From positions 1-59,237 of IMG/VR virus record IMGVR_UViG_3300027896_000047: DNA of 59,237 nucleotides; one strand, given 5' to 3'. Source of the DNA: a virus. Its lineage: Duplodnaviria > Caudoviricetes. The notes below the pieces were generated by a model. That model searched no databases. It saw nothing but the letters and a program-made list of their open reading frames with translations, and was not told the origin of the DNA. Shown in pieces: positions 2,340-22,018 of this stretch. The position numbers and the translations under genes were made by a program. Within the stretch, counting starts at the first letter, position 1. Every line of letters starts with the position of its first letter.

Positions 2340-3833
2340 ATGTATACAATGCAAGATCATACAAATTTTAGAAAAGTTGTCTCTAGTTCGATAGAGGCTA
2401 TCGTGCATACTAAATTAAATGCAGGTAATTTTTTACATAAGTGTGTAAGCACGTCAAAGAGTGGTAGCTTTCTTCCCTTTTATGAAAGGACTCTTTTACG
2501 TCTTAATGCATCTATGTCTACCACTGAATTTTTTAATTTAGGGATCAATAAAATACAATTACCTAAAAAAGAGGCTGAGAAAATTTTAACATACGAATTA
2601 ACTGAATCATATAGAGCTCTTCTTGGATTTGTCTATATGTATAGAAGAACTCCTAAAGGAGCGTGTTCAGTAATTGCTGGTAAGTTACATATAAATAGTA
2701 ACTATTTAAGGCAGGTTTTATCAGAATACGTTTCTTGTAGTTCTAAATTACTTAATTCTATCGCATCGTTATATGGCACTACTTATGAAACATTCGTAAC
2801 GATGGGAGAATGTGTACATAAAAGTGATTTTGCGACACTGGATACCACAATTTATAATTTAAAAGACACTATTGATTTCAAAAAAAATGAGATAGCAGTT
2901 GTACCTTTCACCAATACTTCAAATGCTGATTTTTCCGATCAACGCAATATGTCAATTCTTTTAGGTTTAGGTCTAAATAAATTATTACAAATTAAAGGAA
3001 TTGAACAGTCATTAAGTATAGCTTCAATGTTTGATATGAGTTCAGGGACATTTAATAAAATATTGAATTTTACTAAATTTCCAAATAATGTTTTTAATTA
3101 CACTATGTACCAAAGTATTGTGGATGGATTACATACAACATTTAATGAATTATTTACTATTGGTTTAACTGAGTATAATACATATAACCCTTCTTCATAT
3201 CTTGTTGAGAATGATCGTAAGCAGTTAGTGCATGATTCGATTATTAATGAAAGAAAAAAAGTACTGACAACATATAGAGATATTGTTACTTTACTTAATA
3301 TACCTTCATATAAAACAATCCTTGTTAATGTATCAGGGATAGACTTTCCACATTTAAGTAGAATCGATTCAATTGGTGCAATACCAAGTGAGAAAGTGTT
3401 AAGTAAAATAGCAAATGCTTTTGGATCAACATATCAATATTTTTTAGAGATAGGTAATCTCTCGAAAGAACTCAGAGAAATTGAGATTCGGAAAATTCTA
3501 AAACTTGACAGTCCTATTAATAAATATTACAAAGAAAAACAATGCGACGTAGTGACTGTTACAAAAGATATTTCAAATGTGTTACAGTATGTTGCTTTTA
3601 TGTATAAAGAAAAAAGTATACGTACTTGGGCAAAGAAAGCGAATATAAGTTACTCATGTATTCACAAAATTAAAAATGCTGGAAATAAACCATCAAAAAG
3701 AACCATTCAAAAATTAGCTGCTGTTGTAGGTATTGCTTCTGAAGATTTAATTGATATGGGTAAAAGTATTACTGATCCTTCTATTCCAATAACCTCTGAT
3801 TCACGTTTTGATGTTTTTCTAATATTTAAATAA
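2340..3833 (+). CDS. Protein with 4-5 tandem Cro/C1 (XRE)-type HTH domains
   Basis: Repeated units ending in ..IA..(Y/F)G.T...F..(M/I)G. The last unit SIRTWAKKANISYSCIHKIKNAGNKPSKRTIQKLAAVVG is a textbook XRE HTH. Confidence 0.7.
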   Translation: MYTMQDHTNFRKVVSSSIEAIVHTKLNAGNFLHKCVSTSKSGSFLPFYERTLLRLNASMSTTEFFNLGINKIQLPKKEAEKILTYELTESYRALLGFVYMYRRTPKGACSVIAGKLHINSNYLRQVLSEYVSCSSKLLNSIASLYGTTYETFVTMGECVHKSDFATLDTTIYNLKDTIDFKKNEIAVVPFTNTSNADFSDQRNMSILLGLGLNKLLQIKGIEQSLSIASMFDMSSGTFNKILNFTKFPNNVFNYTMYQSIVDGLHTTFNELFTIGLTEYNTYNPSSYLVENDRKQLVHDSIINERKKVLTTYRDIVTLLNIPSYKTILVNVSGIDFPHLSRIDSIGAIPSEKVLSKIANAFGSTYQYFLEIGNLSKELREIEIRKILKLDSPINKYYKEKQCDVVTVTKDISNVLQYVAFMYKEKSIRTWAKKANISYSCIHKIKNAGNKPSKRTIQKLAAVVGIASEDLIDMGKSITDPSIPITSDSRFDVFLIFK

Positions 3834-3991: not shown

Positions 3992-4579
3992 ATGGATTAC
4001 ACAAAATGTACTATTTGGGAACCTAGTATTAAAACACCTAAAATACCACTTGTAGAAATTAATAGTACTTTTATACCTTTATACCCTGTATTTATGACTC
4101 GTTTTAGCCCATCGTCATATAGAAGAGGATGGTTTTGGGTGTATGAATGTACAAAGTGTGGGAAAGAACGTCTAATGTCAAGAGGGTTTACAGTATACAA
4201 TGAATGTACATGTGTAGCCCATCGTCAAGTAACAAGAGTGCCAATATTTCCTAGAGAGGAACATGCATTATGTAGTGGATGTGGGAAAGATTTCGTGTAC
4301 ACAAAATTAGCCGGGACTCATTTTATAAAATATTGTGGTAATGAATGCACTGCTTTAGCTAAAAGTACTTTTCAAAAAAATTGGAGTGTTGAGCATAAAA
4401 AATTATCTGTGATTGAAGGATTTAATAGAGTCAAAATATGTATGAGATATGACGGGGTTTCATATGCATTATGTGATCATTATCATGTGTGTTTAACTTT
4501 TAGAATTGACGGGGATTTAGGACCTCATTATATTGAAGGTGGTGGATGTTACATATTTTCTGGGAAAAACATAGTATAA
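3992..4579 (+). CDS. Cys-rich (zinc-finger-like) hypothetical protein
   Basis: CTKCG, CTC, CSGCG, YCGNEC and CDHYHVC motifs. Confidence 0.6.
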   Translation: MDYTKCTIWEPSIKTPKIPLVEINSTFIPLYPVFMTRFSPSSYRRGWFWVYECTKCGKERLMSRGFTVYNECTCVAHRQVTRVPIFPREEHALCSGCGKDFVYTKLAGTHFIKYCGNECTALAKSTFQKNWSVEHKKLSVIEGFNRVKICMRYDGVSYALCDHYHVCLTFRIDGDLGPHYIEGGGCYIFSGKNIV

Positions 4580-4593
4580 AGTGTAAAAAACGC

Positions 4594-4622
4594 TTGTATT
4601 TGATTTATAAATAGTGTAAAGT
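4594..4622 (+). promoter_or_regulatory. Sigma70-like promoter
   Basis: TTGTAT-N17-TAAAGT; flanks closely resemble the promoter at 15573. Confidence 0.6.
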
Positions 4623-7660: not shown

Positions 7661-8890
7661 ATGTATACAATAAATAACCTTAATATATTTTCTGATAGTA
7701 TTGATGGTGCTACTTTGAATCAGATGCATTCAGCATTAGACCATGATTGGGTAGTTAGAGGAGTATTACTTCCTGATGCACATTTAGGATATGGCCTGCC
7801 TATCGGAGGTGTAGTTTCTACGCGAGATGTAGTGGTACCTCCTTGGGTAGGCTACGATATAGGGTGCGGTATCTGTGCTGTTAAAACCCTTTTTAAACTA
7901 GATAATATTGGTTCTGAAGAGAGCATCGCAACATTTCGTGACATATACACACTTATTACTGATACCGTCCCTTTAGGTGTAGGTGTGTATCGGAAGAAAG
8001 CAGTTATGTCATCAAGGCAGATTTATGATAAATTTGAGATTGAGTGTTCTGATTTTTTAAAGGCTCGGATGGACCAAAAAATGGCATTGCAGTTAGGGTC
8101 CCTTGGGAGCGGTAACCATTTCATCGAAATTGGGCTAGATTCAGAGAGCTACTTATGGGTAATTATACATTCAGGATCAAGAGGCTTTGGCCACGGTTGT
8201 GCCACCCATTACATGGAGTTAGCTCAACCAGACGCTGGATCAAAAGAAGGATCTTATCCATTGGATATAAACTCAGTAAACGGAAAAAATTATATTAAAG
8301 ACCTTGCGTTTATGCTTGAGTTCGCATTGATAAATAGAGAAGTCATTATGAATGACGTTCTTAATTGCGTATACAAATGTATAACTGGTGAAAATTTCCG
8401 TTCTTTTGTGTATGTTAAGGGGCGTGATTTAATAACACATCCTATTAAAAAGCAAGCGTATGATGCAACACATGATGATAGAATTACAGTGTTCATTAAC
8501 CGCAATCATAATCATGCTGAGTTAAGAGACGGTTTATGGATTCATCGTAAAGGAGCCACGCATGCTGAAGATGGCATGTTGGGTGTTATTCCGGGGAATA
8601 TGCGAGACGGTTCTTTTATTGTAAAAGGTAAAGGCAATCCTGATTCATTGTGTTCATCTTCCCATGGAGCTGGGCGTATTTTAGGACGAAAACAAGCAAA
8701 AAGAATTCTTGATGTTTTGAAGTTTGTTAACACTATGAAAGATGTTGTTTGTGGTGTTTCGAATGATCCAGGTGGTTTGTTGGATGAAGCACCTGGAGCA
8801 TACAAAGACATTTTTACAGTTATGGATGAGCAAAAGGATCTTGTTGAAGTTGTTGAGCATGTTACACCTCTGATTAATGTAAAACGATGA
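7661..8890 (+). CDS. rtcB: RtcB-family RNA ligase
   Basis: Motifs PDAHLG, GYDIGCG, GNHFIE, HSGSRG, HNH, HRKGAT, PGNM, SHGAGR and DEAPGAYK are all intact. Confidence 0.95.
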   Translation: MYTINNLNIFSDSIDGATLNQMHSALDHDWVVRGVLLPDAHLGYGLPIGGVVSTRDVVVPPWVGYDIGCGICAVKTLFKLDNIGSEESIATFRDIYTLITDTVPLGVGVYRKKAVMSSRQIYDKFEIECSDFLKARMDQKMALQLGSLGSGNHFIEIGLDSESYLWVIIHSGSRGFGHGCATHYMELAQPDAGSKEGSYPLDINSVNGKNYIKDLAFMLEFALINREVIMNDVLNCVYKCITGENFRSFVYVKGRDLITHPIKKQAYDATHDDRITVFINRNHNHAELRDGLWIHRKGATHAEDGMLGVIPGNMRDGSFIVKGKGNPDSLCSSSHGAGRILGRKQAKRILDVLKFVNTMKDVVCGVSNDPGGLLDEAPGAYKDIFTVMDEQKDLVEVVEHVTPLINVKR

Positions 8891-10747: not shown

Positions 10748-11569
10748 ATGCAGGATGATTTAGGCGACAGAATGAAAATGTTCGAAAAGGCATGTGCTCC
10801 TAGATGTATGCCTCTTCTTCCAGTATGTGTTAGACTTGATGGTAAGAATTTCAGTAAGTGGACTAAAGGGTTACATCGTCCTTACGATACTGAATTTAGA
10901 ACAGTAATGATAAACGTTACTAGGTATTTAGTACAAGAAACACAAGCTTGTATAGGGTATACACAATCTGATGAAATATCATTAATTTATTACAGTGACA
11001 CGCATGCCTCTCAAATATTTTTTGATGGTAAACTTCAAAAGATTTGTTCTGTGTTAGCTTCTATGACTACGATGAAATTTAATGAATTGATGGCTGAGAA
11101 AATCATTTTGCATGATAGATTTAGGCATAAATCGTTTGCCTTGTTTGATTGTCGTGTATGGCAAGTTCCTACTTTACAGGAAGCTGTAAATGTGTTAATA
11201 TGGCGTGAGCAAGATGCTACTAAGAATAGTGTTACATTAGCTGCATCATCTGTGTATTCTCATAAGCAATTAATGAATAAAAATGGTAAACAGAAACAAG
11301 ACATGCTTATGGAGAAAGGTATTAATTGGAATGATTACCCGTGGTTCTTTAAACGAGGTGTTTATGTCAAACGTGTAATCAGAGAAAAAGAATATACAAC
11401 TGAAGAGTTGGACACATTGCCAGAAAAACACCGTTTAAATATTATAAATATGGGTGCAGTTAAAAGATCGAGTATTGAAGTACTAGAGAATTTTCCAAAA
11501 CTTGCATCCATTAAAAACGCGGTCGATGTTATTTTTAATAATGTTGAAATAAAACTAAAGGATACGTAA
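10748..11569 (+). CDS. thg1: tRNA(His) guanylyltransferase / Thg1-like 3'-5' polymerase
   Basis: RLDGKNFS, YTQSDEIS, FDGK.QK, FDCR, WREQDA.KNS and GINWND motifs. Confidence 0.92.
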   Translation: MQDDLGDRMKMFEKACAPRCMPLLPVCVRLDGKNFSKWTKGLHRPYDTEFRTVMINVTRYLVQETQACIGYTQSDEISLIYYSDTHASQIFFDGKLQKICSVLASMTTMKFNELMAEKIILHDRFRHKSFALFDCRVWQVPTLQEAVNVLIWREQDATKNSVTLAASSVYSHKQLMNKNGKQKQDMLMEKGINWNDYPWFFKRGVYVKRVIREKEYTTEELDTLPEKHRLNIINMGAVKRSSIEVLENFPKLASIKNAVDVIFNNVEIKLKDT

Positions 11570-11778: not shown

Positions 11779-12486
11779 ATGAGAATAGTTGTCTTTGCAG
11801 ATACTCACACTAAACATGGTACCATGAAAGTGCCTGATGGTGATGTAGTAATATGTTGTGGTGATATATGTTCAACAAGATCAATAGGGGAGGTAACCAC
11901 TTTTATTAGTTGGTTTAAAAAACTCCCTCATCGATATAAAATACTTATCGCAGGGAATCATGATTGGGGATTTCAGCAATTTAATCCTGAAGCATTAATA
12001 CCACGTGATATTTATTATTTGTGTGATTCTTATACCTATGTAAAGGAACCAAATGATTTTACAGCAACTGCTAGTGGTATAAAAGTGTATGGAACGCCTT
12101 GGACTCCTAAGTTTTTCGATTGGGCTTTTATGTTGCCTAGAAATGAAGAGCAATTAAAAGCTAGAGTCGAAGCAATACCAAATAATGTTGATATTTTAGT
12201 ATCACATGGTCCTCCTTTTGAAATTCTAGATACCGTTCCATTATATGATAAATGGGGAGGGTATCTAGCAATGCAGAATGAAGGTTGCAAAATGCTTAGA
12301 CAAAGAGTATTCGAAGTCAAACCAAAACTCCATGTTTTTGGGCACATTCACGAAGGAAGAGGGTCTGTCTTTATGAATGGGACATTGTTTGTAAATGCTA
12401 CTATTTGTAACGGTAATTATGACCCTATATATAAACCTGTTGTAATTGATTATATTAATGGAATAATGTCACTTGTGGAGGCATAA
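11779..12486 (+). CDS. Calcineurin-like metallophosphoesterase (MPPED/Rv0805-like)
   Basis: DTH, GD, GNHD, SHGPP and FGHIHE motifs. Confidence 0.9.
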   Translation: MRIVVFADTHTKHGTMKVPDGDVVICCGDICSTRSIGEVTTFISWFKKLPHRYKILIAGNHDWGFQQFNPEALIPRDIYYLCDSYTYVKEPNDFTATASGIKVYGTPWTPKFFDWAFMLPRNEEQLKARVEAIPNNVDILVSHGPPFEILDTVPLYDKWGGYLAMQNEGCKMLRQRVFEVKPKLHVFGHIHEGRGSVFMNGTLFVNATICNGNYDPIYKPVVIDYINGIMSLVEA

Positions 12487-12852: not shown

Positions 12853-12881
12853 TTGTATTTTGTTTAGTTATGTAGTACTAT
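12853..12881 (+). promoter_or_regulatory. Sigma70-like promoter
   Basis: TTGTAT-N17-TACTAT upstream of the 12935 ORF. Confidence 0.6.
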
Positions 12882-12934
12882 TGTTTTTTAATTAGTAAAA
12901 ATCATTGTTAATTTTAAGTTAAGGAGTAAGAATC

Positions 12935-13693
12935 ATGGCACACATGCACGAGTTGTTGGCTGTAGAGTCAGATGTTCAAGGTCAGTTGAAATTAATTATG
13001 TCGGAAACTGACAGAGTATTCAAAGATAAATCAGCATTATTTCAGGGTTCTCATAGAAAGTTGGTTGTTTTTGATGACAATGATAAAACAGTCTATCCTG
13101 AGGAAAATCAAGCCCTAACTTCAACAGTGGAACAACGTCTCGACTATACTGCAAAGGCAATTGTTAAATGTTTTGATATAATGTTGCAGAAAGAATCAAC
13201 AAATCAAAAAGCAGTAGCAAACATTGTGGTTGATGGTGAAATTCTTGCTGAGAATGTACCTGCAACATTTCTTCTAGGTCTTGAAACTAAATTAAAAGAA
13301 GTACGATCGGTGTATGCTAACATACCTACCCTTCAAGTAGGTATTGATTGGGAAGAGGCTAGTGATCTTGGGAAGGGTATCTATCGTATGAAGTTTCCTG
13401 AAGAAAAATTACGAACTGAGTTAAAGTTCAGGTCTCAGGTACTTTATGAGGCTACTGAACACCATAAAGCAGAAATTGAGAAATGGCAGGAGCAGGTACC
13501 TACTGGTAAGTTTGTTAAGAGTGTTTGGTCAGGTATGTTCACTTCAGCTGAAAAGCATAAGGTACTCACTAATATCGACAAACTTATCTCAGCTGTAAAA
13601 CAAGCTCGTCAAAGAGCTAATATGCAAGAAGTTGTAGGGGGTAATATTGGTAAAAAACTTATTAAATTCATCAATGGTGAAGGTAGTAAGTAA
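12935..13693 (+). CDS. Conserved helical protein of unknown function (resembles a widespread phage/bacterial family, DUF7873-like from memory)
   Basis: AAGGAG RBS. Motifs KESTNQKAVANIVVDG, VPATFLLGLE, IPTL, YEATEHHKAEI, WSG and AVKQARQRAN. Confidence 0.75.
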   Translation: MAHMHELLAVESDVQGQLKLIMSETDRVFKDKSALFQGSHRKLVVFDDNDKTVYPEENQALTSTVEQRLDYTAKAIVKCFDIMLQKESTNQKAVANIVVDGEILAENVPATFLLGLETKLKEVRSVYANIPTLQVGIDWEEASDLGKGIYRMKFPEEKLRTELKFRSQVLYEATEHHKAEIEKWQEQVPTGKFVKSVWSGMFTSAEKHKVLTNIDKLISAVKQARQRANMQEVVGGNIGKKLIKFINGEGSK

Positions 13694-13699
13694 CTATAA

Positions 13700-14020
13700 T
13701 TTTTGAGACAGCATCATTATTAATGTCAAAACCGTCTGAACCGGTATTTATTATCAAACTTATTCTTTTGTCTCAACAATTTTATTTTGAAAACTGCATT
13801 ACTAGGCATTAGTAGATAAAACATTGCTTGTCAGTGGTTCGAATCCATTCTGCTCCTCTATGTACATAAAAATATACCTTATGTACATAGAGGAGCAGTA
13901 GCTCAGTGGTAGAGCAGGCTTTATAAATCTAACATCTGTTAATTGACTGAAAATGTAAGTGAGTAAACAAAACTATACAAGCAGAGGGGTTTCGGAAGGA
14001 TATCTGGAACCCCTCATTTT
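13700..14020 (+). ncRNA. Structured ncRNA with circularly permuted tRNA-like domain (YrlA/Y-RNA-like topology)
   Basis: T arm AGTGG-TTCGAAT-CCATT (13833-13849); perfect 20-bp stem 13850-13869/13879-13898; then TA-GCTC-AGTGGTA-GAGC D arm (13899-13915). Extra helices at 13703-13710/13769-13776 and 13825-13831/13977-13983. RNA ends are inferred. Confidence 0.75.
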
Positions 14021-14022
14021 TT
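13984..14022 (+). terminator. Intrinsic terminator closing the protein-ncRNA unit
   Basis: GAGGGGTTTCGGA-aggata-TCTGGAACCCCTC followed by ATTTTTT. Confidence 0.8.
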
Positions 14023-14145
14023 ATTAAAATATTTATTGCAATTAATTTCTAGATAATGTATACATAAGATATAAACAAAACATAAACCTTCTAAACAAGT
14101 TCAAGATAACCTAGTTTAGAGTAACTGCATTAAGGAGGTATTGTA

Positions 14146-15060
14146 ATGGGTGAACGTCCTGTCACATCTCTAAGTGTGATTATTGCTCGTATTCAAGTAG
14201 ACGATCTACATGAAGGTCATTTAGAGCTATTTCAAGAAGCTTTCAATAATAGTACAACGATGCTTGTTATTATTGGGTTAAGTCCTTGTAAATGTACAAG
14301 GAACAATCCTCTTGATTTTAGCACTCGTTGTAGTCTTGTCCTTTCTCATTTCCCTAAAGCTAAAGTTGCCTATATTGAAGATATAGGTGATAATATTAAA
14401 TGGTCAAAAAAGCTTGATACTATTATTAAGCCTTTTGCCGATAAGCATGATACCACTATACTTTATGGGAGTCGTGATTCTTTCATTAAATCATATCATG
14501 GTACATACCTCACCAAAAATATAATGCAAAAGGTCATTATTTCTGGAACTGTTATAAGGAATCAAATAGCTGCCCGTTCTAGAGATACAGTTGATTTCAG
14601 AGCTGGGGCTATTTGGTATGCTCTTAATCAATATCCAAGAGTAGTTCCAACAGTTGATATTGCTGTTATAGATAAATCTTCAGAATTGCTTCTTTTAGGT
14701 CGTAAACCACATGAAGATTTGTATAGATTAGTTGGGGGTTTTGCAGAACCTGGTGAGACCTTTGAAGCCTCAGCTGTTCGTGAATTGCAGGAAGAAACAG
14801 GTCTTCGTGTTAAACCAGGGCAATTACATATTGAAAGATCATTTTTTATTGATGATTGGCGTTATAAGAATGAGGTTGATAAAATAACTACTGTTTTATT
14901 TACATTGTCTACATATAGTGGTCTGCCTATTCCAAATGATGATATATGTGAATTAAAATGGTTTAATATGTATACTGAGCTTACTTTAGATATAGTGATG
15001 CCAAATCATAGAGATATGATTGCTTATCTTATTAAAAAATATTGTCCGGATCGAGTATGA
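14146..15060 (+). CDS. nadM: Bifunctional NMN/NaMN adenylyltransferase - Nudix (ADP-ribose pyrophosphatase)
   Basis: N-terminal RIQ...LHEGH (HxGH), NPL and ISGT.IR; C-terminal Nudix box GGFAEPGETFEASAVRELQEETGL. Confidence 0.9.
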   Translation: MGERPVTSLSVIIARIQVDDLHEGHLELFQEAFNNSTTMLVIIGLSPCKCTRNNPLDFSTRCSLVLSHFPKAKVAYIEDIGDNIKWSKKLDTIIKPFADKHDTTILYGSRDSFIKSYHGTYLTKNIMQKVIISGTVIRNQIAARSRDTVDFRAGAIWYALNQYPRVVPTVDIAVIDKSSELLLLGRKPHEDLYRLVGGFAEPGETFEASAVRELQEETGLRVKPGQLHIERSFFIDDWRYKNEVDKITTVLFTLSTYSGLPIPNDDICELKWFNMYTELTLDIVMPNHRDMIAYLIKKYCPDRV

Positions 15061-15350
15061 TAAATATTTTAAAGAAAATCGGAAATGCATTAATATTTCT
15101 AGGTATTTTAGGGGTTTTAGTAGTTATCGCTGGAGCTTTTGTTAAACGTTCTGATGACTATAATAAGAAACTTAAAGAGGAAAGTATACACTCAGCTATG
15201 TTTGATTGTGAAAGCAAACAACCATTCTCTACTGACTTAAATTTGCAACAATATGAAATTCGGAAGTGCAAAACAAAGAAAGGTAATGTTGAGTACCTGT
15301 TATTAACTACTCCAAATGGTGATGGTAGTCTTATGGAGTTTCATGAATAA
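15057..15350 (+). CDS. Small membrane-anchored protein
   Basis: TM helix ALIFLGILGVLVVIAGAFV; ATGA overlap with the nadM stop. Confidence 0.55.
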   Translation: MINILKKIGNALIFLGILGVLVVIAGAFVKRSDDYNKKLKEESIHSAMFDCESKQPFSTDLNLQQYEIRKCKTKKGNVEYLLLTTPNGDGSLMEFHE

Positions 15351-19956: not shown

Positions 19957-21159
19957 ATGGGTTTACTAAGAACTACGAACATTATACGGTCGTTAGCAGA
20001 TACCGATCTGTACAAGCTGACAATGATGCAGGTTGTATTTGAAAAATACATGAATGTATCTGTTCAATATGATTTCAAATGTCGTAATATTAAGATACTG
20101 GATACAGTATTTGATAAAGAAGCATTTGTTAAATCAGTAAATAGAGAGATCGATAATTTTTGCTCTTTACGATTTACTGATGATGAACTACAGTACCTTT
20201 CTACTCTTAGATTTTTTAAACCAGGTTTTATTGAATTTCTTCGTATGTTTCGACTAAATAGAAGTCATACGAAAGTATATCTCAAAAATAACGATCTTGC
20301 AATTTCGGTGAAAGGGCCCTGGTTTGCTACCATTCCGGTAGAAGTGCCTGTGCTTGCTATTGTGAGTGAATTATATTCTGGTCAACGTATTGACGGTGAA
20401 ATGGTTGATGTACAATCGATGCTCAAAGAGCTATTAAGGTACAAAATTCAATATATCAATAATAATGTGCCTATAGAGGCAATGCCATCGTTGTTTATCA
20501 ACGATATGGGCACTAGGAGAAGATATTCTTACGAAGCTCAGAAGTATGTGTTAGAGACTATGGTAGAACATGGTTTATTAAGCGGCACTTCTAATATACA
20601 CTTTGCACAAATGTTTGGCATTAAAGCAATGGGAACGATGGCACATGAGTATATCTGTGCTCATCAGCAGTTAGCAAGAGTTGAGGATTGTCAAAAAGCT
20701 GCTTTTCAAGCATGGGCTGAAGTATATAGAGGTGATTTAGGTATTGCTTTGTCTGACACAGTTGGTTTTGCTGCTTTTCTTAGGGATTTTGATTTGTACT
20801 TTGCTAAGTTGTTTGATGGTGCTCGTCATGATTCAGGTGATCCATATGAGTGGTGTAATAAGTTAATTGAGCATTACAACAAACTCACTATTGATCCTAG
20901 AACGAAGATAGCAGTTTTTAGTGATGGGCTTAAATTCCCTACTATGGTTGAATTGTTTCTTGCGTTTTATAAAAGAATTAAAGTATCTTTTGGTATAGGT
21001 ACTGATTTAACCAATGATGTAGGGTTGTTAGCTTTGCAAATAGTTATGAAAATGGTTGAATGTAATGGTAGACCAGTAGCTAAAGTGGCTGATACTGTTG
21101 GAAAAGGTATGTGTCTTGATGCCGGTTTTGAAACTTATATCAAAAATATTTTTAATTAG
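19957..21159 (+). CDS. pncB: Nicotinate phosphoribosyltransferase
   Basis: DTDLYKLTM, DMGTRRR, GTSN, GTMAHE, RHDSGDP, FSDGL and FGIGT; 400 aa, matching E. coli-type PncB. Confidence 0.93.
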   Translation: MGLLRTTNIIRSLADTDLYKLTMMQVVFEKYMNVSVQYDFKCRNIKILDTVFDKEAFVKSVNREIDNFCSLRFTDDELQYLSTLRFFKPGFIEFLRMFRLNRSHTKVYLKNNDLAISVKGPWFATIPVEVPVLAIVSELYSGQRIDGEMVDVQSMLKELLRYKIQYINNNVPIEAMPSLFINDMGTRRRYSYEAQKYVLETMVEHGLLSGTSNIHFAQMFGIKAMGTMAHEYICAHQQLARVEDCQKAAFQAWAEVYRGDLGIALSDTVGFAAFLRDFDLYFAKLFDGARHDSGDPYEWCNKLIEHYNKLTIDPRTKIAVFSDGLKFPTMVELFLAFYKRIKVSFGIGTDLTNDVGLLALQIVMKMVECNGRPVAKVADTVGKGMCLDAGFETYIKNIFN

Positions 21160-21169
21160 GAGCTAGAAC

Positions 21170-22018
21170 ATGAAATACTATTTATTTAATAGGCACGATA
21201 TGCCTCCTGTTATAGAAGGGATTGTAAATAATACATGTGCGTATTTAGTTAAATACCCAAATATAGAATCTTTTGTTTTTGGACTTTCCGGTGGCGCTGA
21301 TAGTGCTTTAGTTTGTGCTTTAGCTGTCAATGTCAGAACACGTATGAAAAATTCTTTTAATAGAGATATTAAAATTATTGCGAGAAGCCTCCCTATATTA
21401 ACTAATAAGCAGGATGAAATTGATAGAGCTGCTGCTGTTGGGAATGCATTTGATATTGATTTTGATACCTTTGACCTAAGTGTTATGTATAAAAGGGTAA
21501 CAGATTGTCTTAATGAAATGTTTGATGGTACTAATGCAGTACGATTAGGAAATATTAAAGCACGTTTACGGATGATTTATTTGTATAATTTAGCACATAG
21601 AAATAAGGGGCTTGTTTTATCAACTGATAATTACACAGAGCTTCTTTTAGGTTTTTGGACACTACATGGTGATGTAGGTGACCTTGGGATGATTCAAAAT
21701 CTTTGGAAAACTGAAGTTTTTATGCTATTAGATTATTATGCATGTAATGTGTATCAGTTACCAGGGGAGGGTAAAATTAGTAGTGCTTTAAAAGCATGTA
21801 GAGATGCGATTCCAACTGATGGGTTAGGAGTATCTGAATCTGACTATGCTCAGTTTGGTAATGCTACTACATATGAAGAGGTCGATCAGATTTTCATCAA
21901 TGCTTTAAACAGTGGATATACAAATACCATCAAGAAAGGTGGTGAAGTTCCTAAAGTGCTGACTATGTATGAAAATAGTATGTATAAGAGAGAGAATCCT
22001 TATAATATCCCAAGATAA
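21170..22018 (+). CDS. nadE: NH3-dependent NAD+ synthetase
   Basis: GLSGGADS, NIKARLRM, TDN..E..LGF.T.HGD and PTDGL; no glutaminase domain. Confidence 0.92.
   Translation: MKYYLFNRHDMPPVIEGIVNNTCAYLVKYPNIESFVFGLSGGADSALVCALAVNVRTRMKNSFNRDIKIIARSLPILTNKQDEIDRAAAVGNAFDIDFDTFDLSVMYKRVTDCLNEMFDGTNAVRLGNIKARLRMIYLYNLAHRNKGLVLSTDNYTELLLGFWTLHGDVGDLGMIQNLWKTEVFMLLDYYACNVYQLPGEGKISSALKACRDAIPTDGLGVSESDYAQFGNATTYEEVDQIFINALNSGYTNTIKKGGEVPKVLTMYENSMYKRENPYNIPR

Follow-up and report, generated by a model that had tools for sequence, protein, structure and literature searches.

A DUF7873 protein gene and a circularly permuted tRNA-like RNA form a conserved phage unit: most likely a ribonucleoprotein of Y-RNA-like design

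What does a phage do with the arms of a tRNA that are encoded in the wrong order behind a protein gene? The question is raised by a locus in the IMG/VR virus record IMGVR_UViG_3300027896_000047 (Duplodnaviria; Caudoviricetes). The window, i.e., the whole stretch of 59,237 nucleotides (nt) which was analyzed, is a 59-kb fragment of this virus rated at about 24% of the genome. Between positions 12853 and 14022 it carries a gene for a protein of 252 amino acids (aa), a member of family DUF7873, and directly behind it a non-coding stretch with tRNA arms in permuted order. A preliminary description of the locus had likened this RNA to YrlA, the bacterial Y RNA which serves the protein Ro60. Do gene and RNA belong together, and is the RNA anything else than an ordinary YrlA? 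The comparisons presented here demonstrate that the gene-RNA unit is conserved far beyond chance. Most likely it specifies a ribonucleoprotein (RNP) in which the design of a Y RNA is combined with a different protein.

The open reading frame (ORF) at 12935..13693 on the plus strand is read in the sequence just as it was first described. Its product matches Pfam DUF7873 (PF25283; E 2.8e-67, 227.4 bits against a curated cut-off of 27) end to end, from residue 1 to 247. The preliminary description had further claimed about 300 nt of non-coding DNA behind the gene and a terminator at 13984. Both are there. No ORF of at least 40 aa lies wholly inside 13694-14145 on either strand, and the next gene starts at 14146. 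An intrinsic terminator-like hairpin of 13 pairs, 7 of them G-C, extends over 13984-14015 on the plus strand and is followed by the T run ATTTTTTATT (whole feature 13984..14022); two terminator-like sites were found in the region where 0.8 were expected. A promoter proposed at 12853 could not be recovered: a sigma-70 consensus scan lists 7 sites across the region, with 8.0 expected, and none at this position.

The DNA directly 3' of the DUF7873 gene encodes a structured RNA of about 290 nt which bears a circularly permuted tRNA-like head at its tip. All of its parts are on the plus strand. The RNA begins with a 5' domain (13703..13776) which is closed by helix P0, TTGAGACA at 13703-13710 pairing with TGTCTCAA at 13769-13776. 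Next comes the 5' strand of a rod (13795..13817), which contains AGUA and consists of P1 (13795-13800), an internal loop and P2 (13809-13817). The head itself (13821..13924) comprises a closing stem, a variable loop, the T arm, the acceptor and the D arm. The RNA returns through the 3' strand of the rod (13934..13957), i.e., P2 at 13934-13942, a loop with UGAAAA, and P1 at 13952-13957. The register of the rod in the window is a prediction from a cofold of the two flanks.

Within the head the T arm AGTGG-TTCGAAT-CCATT (13833..13849) precedes a perfect acceptor hairpin of 20 bp with a 9-nt loop (13850..13898; 13850-13869 paired with 13879-13898). The acceptor stem proper has 7 bp, formed by the 3' strand CTGCTCC at 13850-13856 and the 5' strand GGAGCAG at 13892-13898. 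U8 and A9 (TA, 13899-13900) and the D arm GCTC-AGTGGTA-GAGC (13901..13915) follow. Each of these elements sits at the coordinates originally assigned to it. Two other statements of the preliminary description need correction. The verdict that no anticodon stem can pair was too strong, as a weak stem of 3-4 bp (approximately 13825-13829 with 13916-13920) occupies the position at which the family has a covarying 5-bp stem. The words TGCTTGT (13825-13831) and ACAAGCA (13977-13983), supposed to close the domain over a long range, do exist; their 7-bp closure was rejected, having no counterpart in the six nearest relatives (alignment A5, inspected by eye), and, by a rough estimate, complementary 7-mers are not rare over a span of 150 nt.

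Minimum free energy folding of the window RNA alone misses the D arm; therefore, homology and covariation were used to derive the structure. Alignment A5 shows homology of the window RNA with the RNAs of the six nearest relatives from end to end, and the 3' rod strand carries a conserved TTGAATGAAA block. About 10 nt separate the DUF7873 stop codon from P0. Because the first helix follows the stop codon so directly, co-transcription of gene and RNA is the simplest reading. A look-up of sequencing runs that contain the stretch listed a DNA run, probably its source, and none of RNA.

Is the RNA a constant companion of the gene? Loci were collected with protein homology as the sole criterion; they comprise 80 contigs of viruses and 14 of metagenome-assembled genomes, at 36-59% protein identity. 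A strict pattern-plus-pairing script detected a permuted element in 69 of 96 sources, a count which includes two duplicate loci and one probable false match; the elements share the strand of the gene and mostly follow it at a distance of 106-600 nt. From 39 heads (training alignment A3) a covariance model, R1, was then built. The preliminary description had set beforehand the check that homologous genes carry a downstream element, and this is what the model finds: R1 scores at least 46 bits just downstream of the DUF7873 gene, on the same strand, in 85 of the 94 protein-selected sources, of which 39 are training rows of A3 or, in the case of L030, the duplicate of one (L002), and a few others nearly duplicate a training row. 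The window copy is outside the training set and is the sole R1 match in the window (64.7 bits, E 3.9e-18). Three of the nine other sources have less than 200 nt of downstream sequence. In L005 an R1 match (4524-4604, 41.8 bits) is located upstream of the DUF7873 gene, in a contig which ends 181 nt past the gene.

The association extends to more distant proteins. Five cultured phages were checked, Ralstonia phiRSL1, Klebsiella FBKp24, Gordonia Ronaldo, Rhizobium RHph_TM30, and Vibrio D505. At 29-41% protein identity all five have an R1 match in the stretch after the DUF7873 gene, and in four of them this stretch is 450-500 nt long, unannotated and devoid of a convincing gene. In three of the five a second, weaker permuted head precedes the main one, i.e., the RNA is two-headed (L218 3383-3483; L219, which is FBKp24, 3363-3438; L220 3494-3572). 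The published FBKp24 annotation has a 'suppressor tRNA-Sup-TTA' at 3513-3597 which shares the T arm and the 3' acceptor strand with the head at 3557-3657. Because the head's own 5' strand pairs in 7 of 7 positions versus 5 of 7 for the tRNA call (by eye), this suppressor tRNA is, judged by its pairing, probably a mis-call.

The head alone does not define the family. In the reverse direction, a pattern for CCA-bearing heads returned 80 loci, 69 of which are ordinary tRNA-tRNA junctions. Short orphan YrlA-like RNAs in which no rod was seen occur in L110, L122, L165 and L166. Since permuted heads also exist without the gene, the head is a shared module, and it is the rod, the 5' domain and the gene which mark the DUF7873-linked family. 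A rod-specific pattern scan of viral contigs was too strict and returned one locus. In L110 (about 1450-1800) the units flanking the orphan head are repeated, so YrlA-like RNAs may stand there in tandem; there is no DUF7873 gene within 1.6 kb of it.

Does evolution preserve the structure as drawn? In 39 sequences, preselected for acceptor and T-stem pairing so that the percentages, though not the compensatory changes, are biased upward, the four helices of the head are paired in 92.8% of cells versus 63.5% after column shuffling and 33-48% when the structure is slid by 1-3 columns. Compensatory changes occur in 20 of 21 head pairs. The acceptor stem is 100% paired with all seven pairs compensatory, the T stem 99.5%, and the D stem 99.4%. 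At the anticodon-stem position the flanks of the relatives form a 5-bp stem of ever-changing sequence, which runs on into the rod. An alignment of the long flanks with MAFFT (A2) aligned the head only. Among 18 canonical members the rod helix P2 has 14 bp, 87% of cells paired and compensatory changes in 14 of 14 pairs; support for the basal helix P1 is poor, as 52% of its cells are paired (A4). P2 is flanked by a conserved internal loop, 5' AUCAAGUA opposite 3' GAAAG, which resembles a loop-E motif (AGUA/GAA). A second conserved internal loop has 5' YAAAYAA opposite 3' UAUUAGCUUGAA.

The separate 5' domain, postulated from the window copy, is borne out by the relatives. A TTGNNNNN block about 65 nt before the T arm, conserved in position, pairs with an upstream complement located 6-24 nt past the end of the protein alignment. 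The compensatory change is clear: TTGAGACA/TGTCTCAA in the window is replaced elsewhere by AGGACTCA/TGAGTCCT, TTGGGTCA/TGACCCAA or ACTGGACA/TGTCCAGT. A partner forming 7 or 8 of the 8 pairs exists in 32 of the 43 relatives having the motif; in 16 rows selected among these 32, 86.7% of cells are paired versus 70.1% in shuffles, and 5 of 7 pairs are compensatory. Further, NAGY motifs (mostly YAGC) recur at an exact 6-nt spacing in the 5' domains of relatives, 67 times in 61 regions compared with 4.4 in shuffles (examples are L022 8745-8820, L025 4823-4902, and L062 8745-8819). By analogy, such arrays are the pattern expected of the target of a multimeric RNA binder; this is a lead only.

The acceptor end carries a signature of its own. 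In 52 of 61 non-redundant heads N73-CCA is encoded right after the 3' acceptor strand, followed by an A/U-rich linker of 7-147 nt, and a U immediately precedes the 5' acceptor strand in 36 of 61. N73 is variable (A 12, G 9, U 26, C 5), as are the acceptor pairs; hence no single amino-acid identity is conserved. By analogy, N73-CCA in the relatives looks like a built-in RNase P site together with a mature 3' end. A precedent is the YrlA of M. smegmatis, the only one with a 7-bp acceptor stem: Chen et al. (2014; PMC4201824) demonstrated that RNase P cleaves this RNA and that in vivo it terminates in CCA. Nine heads lack CCA, and the window copy is among them, as had been stated at the outset: positions 73-76 read T-CTA, and the linker has turned into a 13-bp stem extension. 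L008 and L009 also have TCTA and a linker which, by eye, can be folded like that of the window. Because CCA became CUA and the linker became a stem extension, the window RNA probably stays sealed, like Salmonella YrlA.

Could the locus be a true circularly permuted tRNA gene, the ends of which are joined as in some algae, e.g., by the RtcB ligase encoded 4 kb upstream? The encoded N73-CCA and the U at position -1 (52 and 36 of 61) would fit, as would the presence of RtcB and a Thg1-like enzyme upstream in the window. However, there is no 7-nt anticodon loop, as the 5-bp closing stem continues into the covarying rod. Just 7 of 47 related virus records contain RtcB, neither N73 nor the acceptor pairs are conserved, the window copy lacks CCA, and ARAGORN reports neither a tRNA nor a tmRNA gene in the 59-kb window. 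We consider a tRNA gene proper highly improbable. Even less credit is due to a two-piece permuted tmRNA-like RNA for ribosome rescue, although its gene order is identical (T arm, 3' acceptor strand with CCA, spacer, 5' acceptor strand) and the Rfam models for permuted tmRNA yield faint matches of 12-14 bits. A G3-U70 pair is the alanine identity element. In the window pair 3:70 is A-U, so the alanine identity pair is absent, and in relatives this pair is variable. A full D arm is present and, as said, ARAGORN finds no tmRNA.

Another possibility is that the RNA acts solely in cis, as a 3' untranslated element with a tRNA-shaped, exonuclease-resistant cap which stabilizes or autoregulates the DUF7873 mRNA and has no function in trans. 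In most loci no more than about 25 nt separate the end of the protein alignment from the first helix, leaving no room for a promoter, and the terminator comes after the RNA. Moreover, Chen et al. suggest that CCA shields the cut RNA from exonucleases (PMC4201824). Yet the covarying 14-bp rod and its conserved internal loops, together with the 5' domain and the second head of some phages, go far beyond the needs of a stabilizer, and a cut by RNase P would sever the 3' part. A purely cis-acting element appears unlikely to us, and it would be compatible with an RNP.

Is the RNA then an ordinary YrlA which serves a Ro60 encoded elsewhere in the phage or in the host, with DUF7873 an unrelated neighbour or an accessory of the Ro60 pathway? 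The YrlA-type topology is real. In a scan of 451 nt Rfam YrlA (RF02553) is the best match (31.4 bits, E 5e-5, over 13809-13945), and the alignment is nearly perfect for T arm, acceptor stem and D arm. It fails in the basal stem, where Ro60 binds, and the gathering score of 69 is not reached. Correspondingly, a scan of the whole window at the Rfam gathering thresholds gives no match; none of 12 relatives' loci attains the YrlA gathering score, and the L043 copy has 41.3 bits. RAGATH-7 and microRNA families also appeared among the Rfam matches and were dismissed, being driven by the long hairpin and far under their cut-offs. Chen et al. (PMC4201824) describe the motif bound by Ro60 as GNCGAAN0-1G, located in the 5' strand of the basal stem. 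It is absent in the window; of 61 heads, 4 have it in the 5' flank (1.8 expected) and none in the 3' flank. With a score below the gathering threshold and without the Ro60 motif the RNA departs from an ordinary YrlA, as the preliminary description had anticipated.

Ro60 itself is a rare companion. The window has no Ro60/TROVE gene, as already noted at the start, a negative which covers about 24% of the genome, a distant copy being possible. TROVE is present in 4 of 47 related virus records. It is found in one of 18 records that are at least 90% complete; the other 17 of these DUF7873 phage genomes are without it. In favour of a common pathway, Ro60 lies within 8 kb of DUF7873 in three of the four TROVE-bearing records, and in L041 the end of the Ro60 gene (vWA_Ro60, E 4e-23) overlaps the start of DUF7873. 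The order in L041, 5438-8944, is YrlA-like RNA, a 194-aa ORF, Ro60, DUF7873, and the DUF7873-linked RNA. This same locus argues against a single shared RNA: the one upstream of Ro60 scores 60.7 bits with the YrlA model, the DUF7873-linked one is not listed at E<=0.001. In L028 RlaP and Ro60 are located about 5 kb upstream and have permuted elements of their own beside them; L028 also contains a group I intron match (14850-15106, 77.6 bits). Thus, Ro60 and DUF7873 pairs can coexist, each protein with its own RNA, and they may work in one pathway. All in all, we assign a low probability to an ordinary YrlA. A jumbo-phage survey by Iyer et al. mentions, in its accessible parts, Ro60/TROVE only, with a tRNA-like partner (PMC7824862).

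What is known of the protein? The family DUF7873 is large: at E<=0.001 it counts 2457 cluster representatives (clusters at 50% identity). It occurs mostly in phages, including cultured ones of Klebsiella, Vibrio, Rhizobium, Ralstonia, Gordonia, and cyanobacteria; the annotation is hypothetical throughout. Nearly all of the 150 matches listed have about 250 aa and match in a single stretch; longer fused forms were not found, which is weak evidence. PHROGs, NCBIfam and PADLOC hold no family for the 252-aa protein, and a literature search (supplements aside) found no publication on DUF7873 or its pairing with an RNA.

An AlphaFold2 model from a 29-row alignment (pLDDT, i.e., predicted local distance difference test, 86.4; predicted template modelling score 0.71) consists of four long helices and a sheet that includes a long hairpin. 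The helices agree with the helical protein of the preliminary description; a purely helical fold does not, since the model is α/β with a long β-hairpin. A VIA search gave generic helical bundles only (the best, Z 8.7, is a designed helical bundle), and an Atlas search returned only DUF7873 clusters. Basic patches lie in the C-terminal helix (KKARQRAN) and near residues 161-180. A model of two copies scores 0.77, compared with 0.00 for the best of three controls. The mark for a dimer was reached by 20 of 30 proteins solved as one-chain pairs and by 1 of 23 solved as single chains, counts which are only a rough guide here as a custom alignment was used. The two-copy runs agree in at least 95% of contacts with a partner pLDDT of at least 88, and the invariant motifs (residues 83-92, 108-116, 129-131) lie in the symmetric interface of the model. 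The modelling supports a symmetric dimer.

From these data we favour, with a confidence somewhat above even, a two-part phage module. It would consist of the DUF7873 gene and, on the same transcript, the RNA of about 290 nt, and would constitute a Ro60-independent counterpart of the Ro60-Y RNA particle. The DUF7873 protein, presumably as a dimer, would bind the downstream RNA at the rod or the 5' domain. The tRNA-shaped head would then present its elbow and acceptor end to host enzymes which read the tRNA shape, candidates being RNase P, the CCA-adding enzyme, modification enzymes, and perhaps polynucleotide phosphorylase (PNPase). In most relatives RNase P probably opens the head, as it does in M. 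smegmatis YrlA, because most heads carry N73-CCA and often a U ahead of the 5' strand; this would generate a two-piece RNA with a free CCA end.

A number of observations speak against such a module. The protein has no recognisable RNA-binding fold, as Foldseek searches of PDB and BFVD returned nothing at E<=0.001, and it is not basic (median pI 7.0, net charge 0, in 29 members). L069 and L095 have ample downstream DNA and no R1 match, and in L004, L006, L058 and L072 the R1 matches are only weak or ambiguous. Of 11 loci from the reverse scan with 6-7 of 7 acceptor pairs, only 3 have DUF7873 upstream at a distance of up to 1.6 kb. The window copy, with its single NAGY motif, missing CCA and weak closing stem, could be decaying. 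Finally, about half of the canonical rods have, by eye, a CGAA-containing loop on the 3' strand; because of this a host Ro60 is a possible binder of the RNA, which is also a point in favour of an ordinary YrlA.

One may carry the Ro60-independent module a step further. DUF7873 and its RNA may represent a widespread phage RNP in which a two-piece CCA-ending mimic, opened by RNase P, captures or distracts host factors such as processing enzymes, PNPase, or toxins acting on acceptor ends. We offer this extension tentatively and hold it with appreciably less conviction than the module itself. If true, it would amount to a new class of phage counter-defence or RNA-control particle.

The surroundings of the locus add some colour. 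Directly upstream of DUF7873, on the same strand, are the RtcB ligase (7661-8890, about 4 kb upstream of the gene), a Thg1-like 3'-5' polymerase (10748-11569), and a metallophosphoesterase (11779-12486), which together make up an RNA-repair set. On the other side the unit adjoins a phage NAD+ synthesis cluster. It starts with an adenylyltransferase-like N-terminal part fused to Nudix at 14146-15060 (Pfam Nudix; a weak PHROG cytidyltransferase match), and our guess is that this N-terminal part is a nicotinamide mononucleotide adenylyltransferase. NAPRTase (19957-21159) and NAD synthase (21170-22018) complete the cluster, and PP2C phosphatase, Band 7 and ThyX are nearby.

In most relatives the module is situated within or beside tRNA arrays, unlike in the tRNA-free window. 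In many loci an ordinary tRNA gene, with varied anticodons, often begins about 90-100 nt past the D arm (e.g., L012 8979-9052; L086 1785-1857; L061 5173-5242), and its processing by RNase P may set the 3' end of the RNA. Apart from the RNA DUF7873 has no conserved neighbour in the 94 loci; the next commonest gene cluster is present in 14 of them, and the commoner neighbours with a Pfam name are replication and recombination genes.

Why does it matter? A large family of hypothetical proteins is tied to a covarying tRNA-mimic RNA and so acquires a testable function, and Y-RNA-like mimicry is extended beyond Ro60. The RNA explains the unannotated gaps of 450-500 nt after the gene in four of five phage genomes and also the probably mis-called suppressor tRNA of FBKp24. 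If the particle acts on host enzymes or defences which recognise tRNA, it would be a new player in the tRNA conflict between phage and host.

How does the DUF7873-linked RNA compare with known systems? TRAP binds RNA with (G/U)AG repeats, and multimeric binders use such arrays. The NAGY arrays of the relatives with their fixed 6-nt spacing resemble TRAP targets; however, no likeness of DUF7873 to TRAP in sequence or fold was found, and the window copy has one motif. In Cyanidioschyzon and other algae permuted tRNA genes give rise to complete, anticodon-bearing tRNAs via a circular intermediate. The 3' half of the cloverleaf is likewise encoded ahead of the 5' half in the DUF7873-linked RNA, yet an anticodon loop is missing. 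With two-piece tmRNA (permuted ssrA) it shares the permuted gene order and, in most relatives, a CCA in the middle of the precursor, which processing frees in tmRNA and would probably free here; unlike tmRNA it has neither the alanine identity pair nor a link to SmpB, and it retains a full D arm. The closest relation is with YrlA. Both have the order T arm, acceptor stem, D arm, in both a basal stem replaces the anticodon arm, and both are encoded beside a protein gene. In contrast to YrlA, the DUF7873-linked RNA has no Ro60 motif, stays below the gathering score and mostly resides in genomes without Ro60. It is much longer and comprises a rod of 14 bp, a loop resembling loop E and a 5' domain of its own, and the adjoining protein, DUF7873, is unrelated to TROVE. 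A phage-encoded precedent is the Ro60-Yrl particle of Thermus phage phiLo, which consists of a phage protein and Y-like RNAs and for which a capture of host PNPase is proposed (PMC12135203). Here as there both the protein and the Y-like RNA are supplied by the phage. In phiLo, however, a Ro60 ring is combined with CGAA-bulge RNAs encoded upstream of the gene, whereas in the present unit the protein is DUF7873 and its RNA is encoded downstream.

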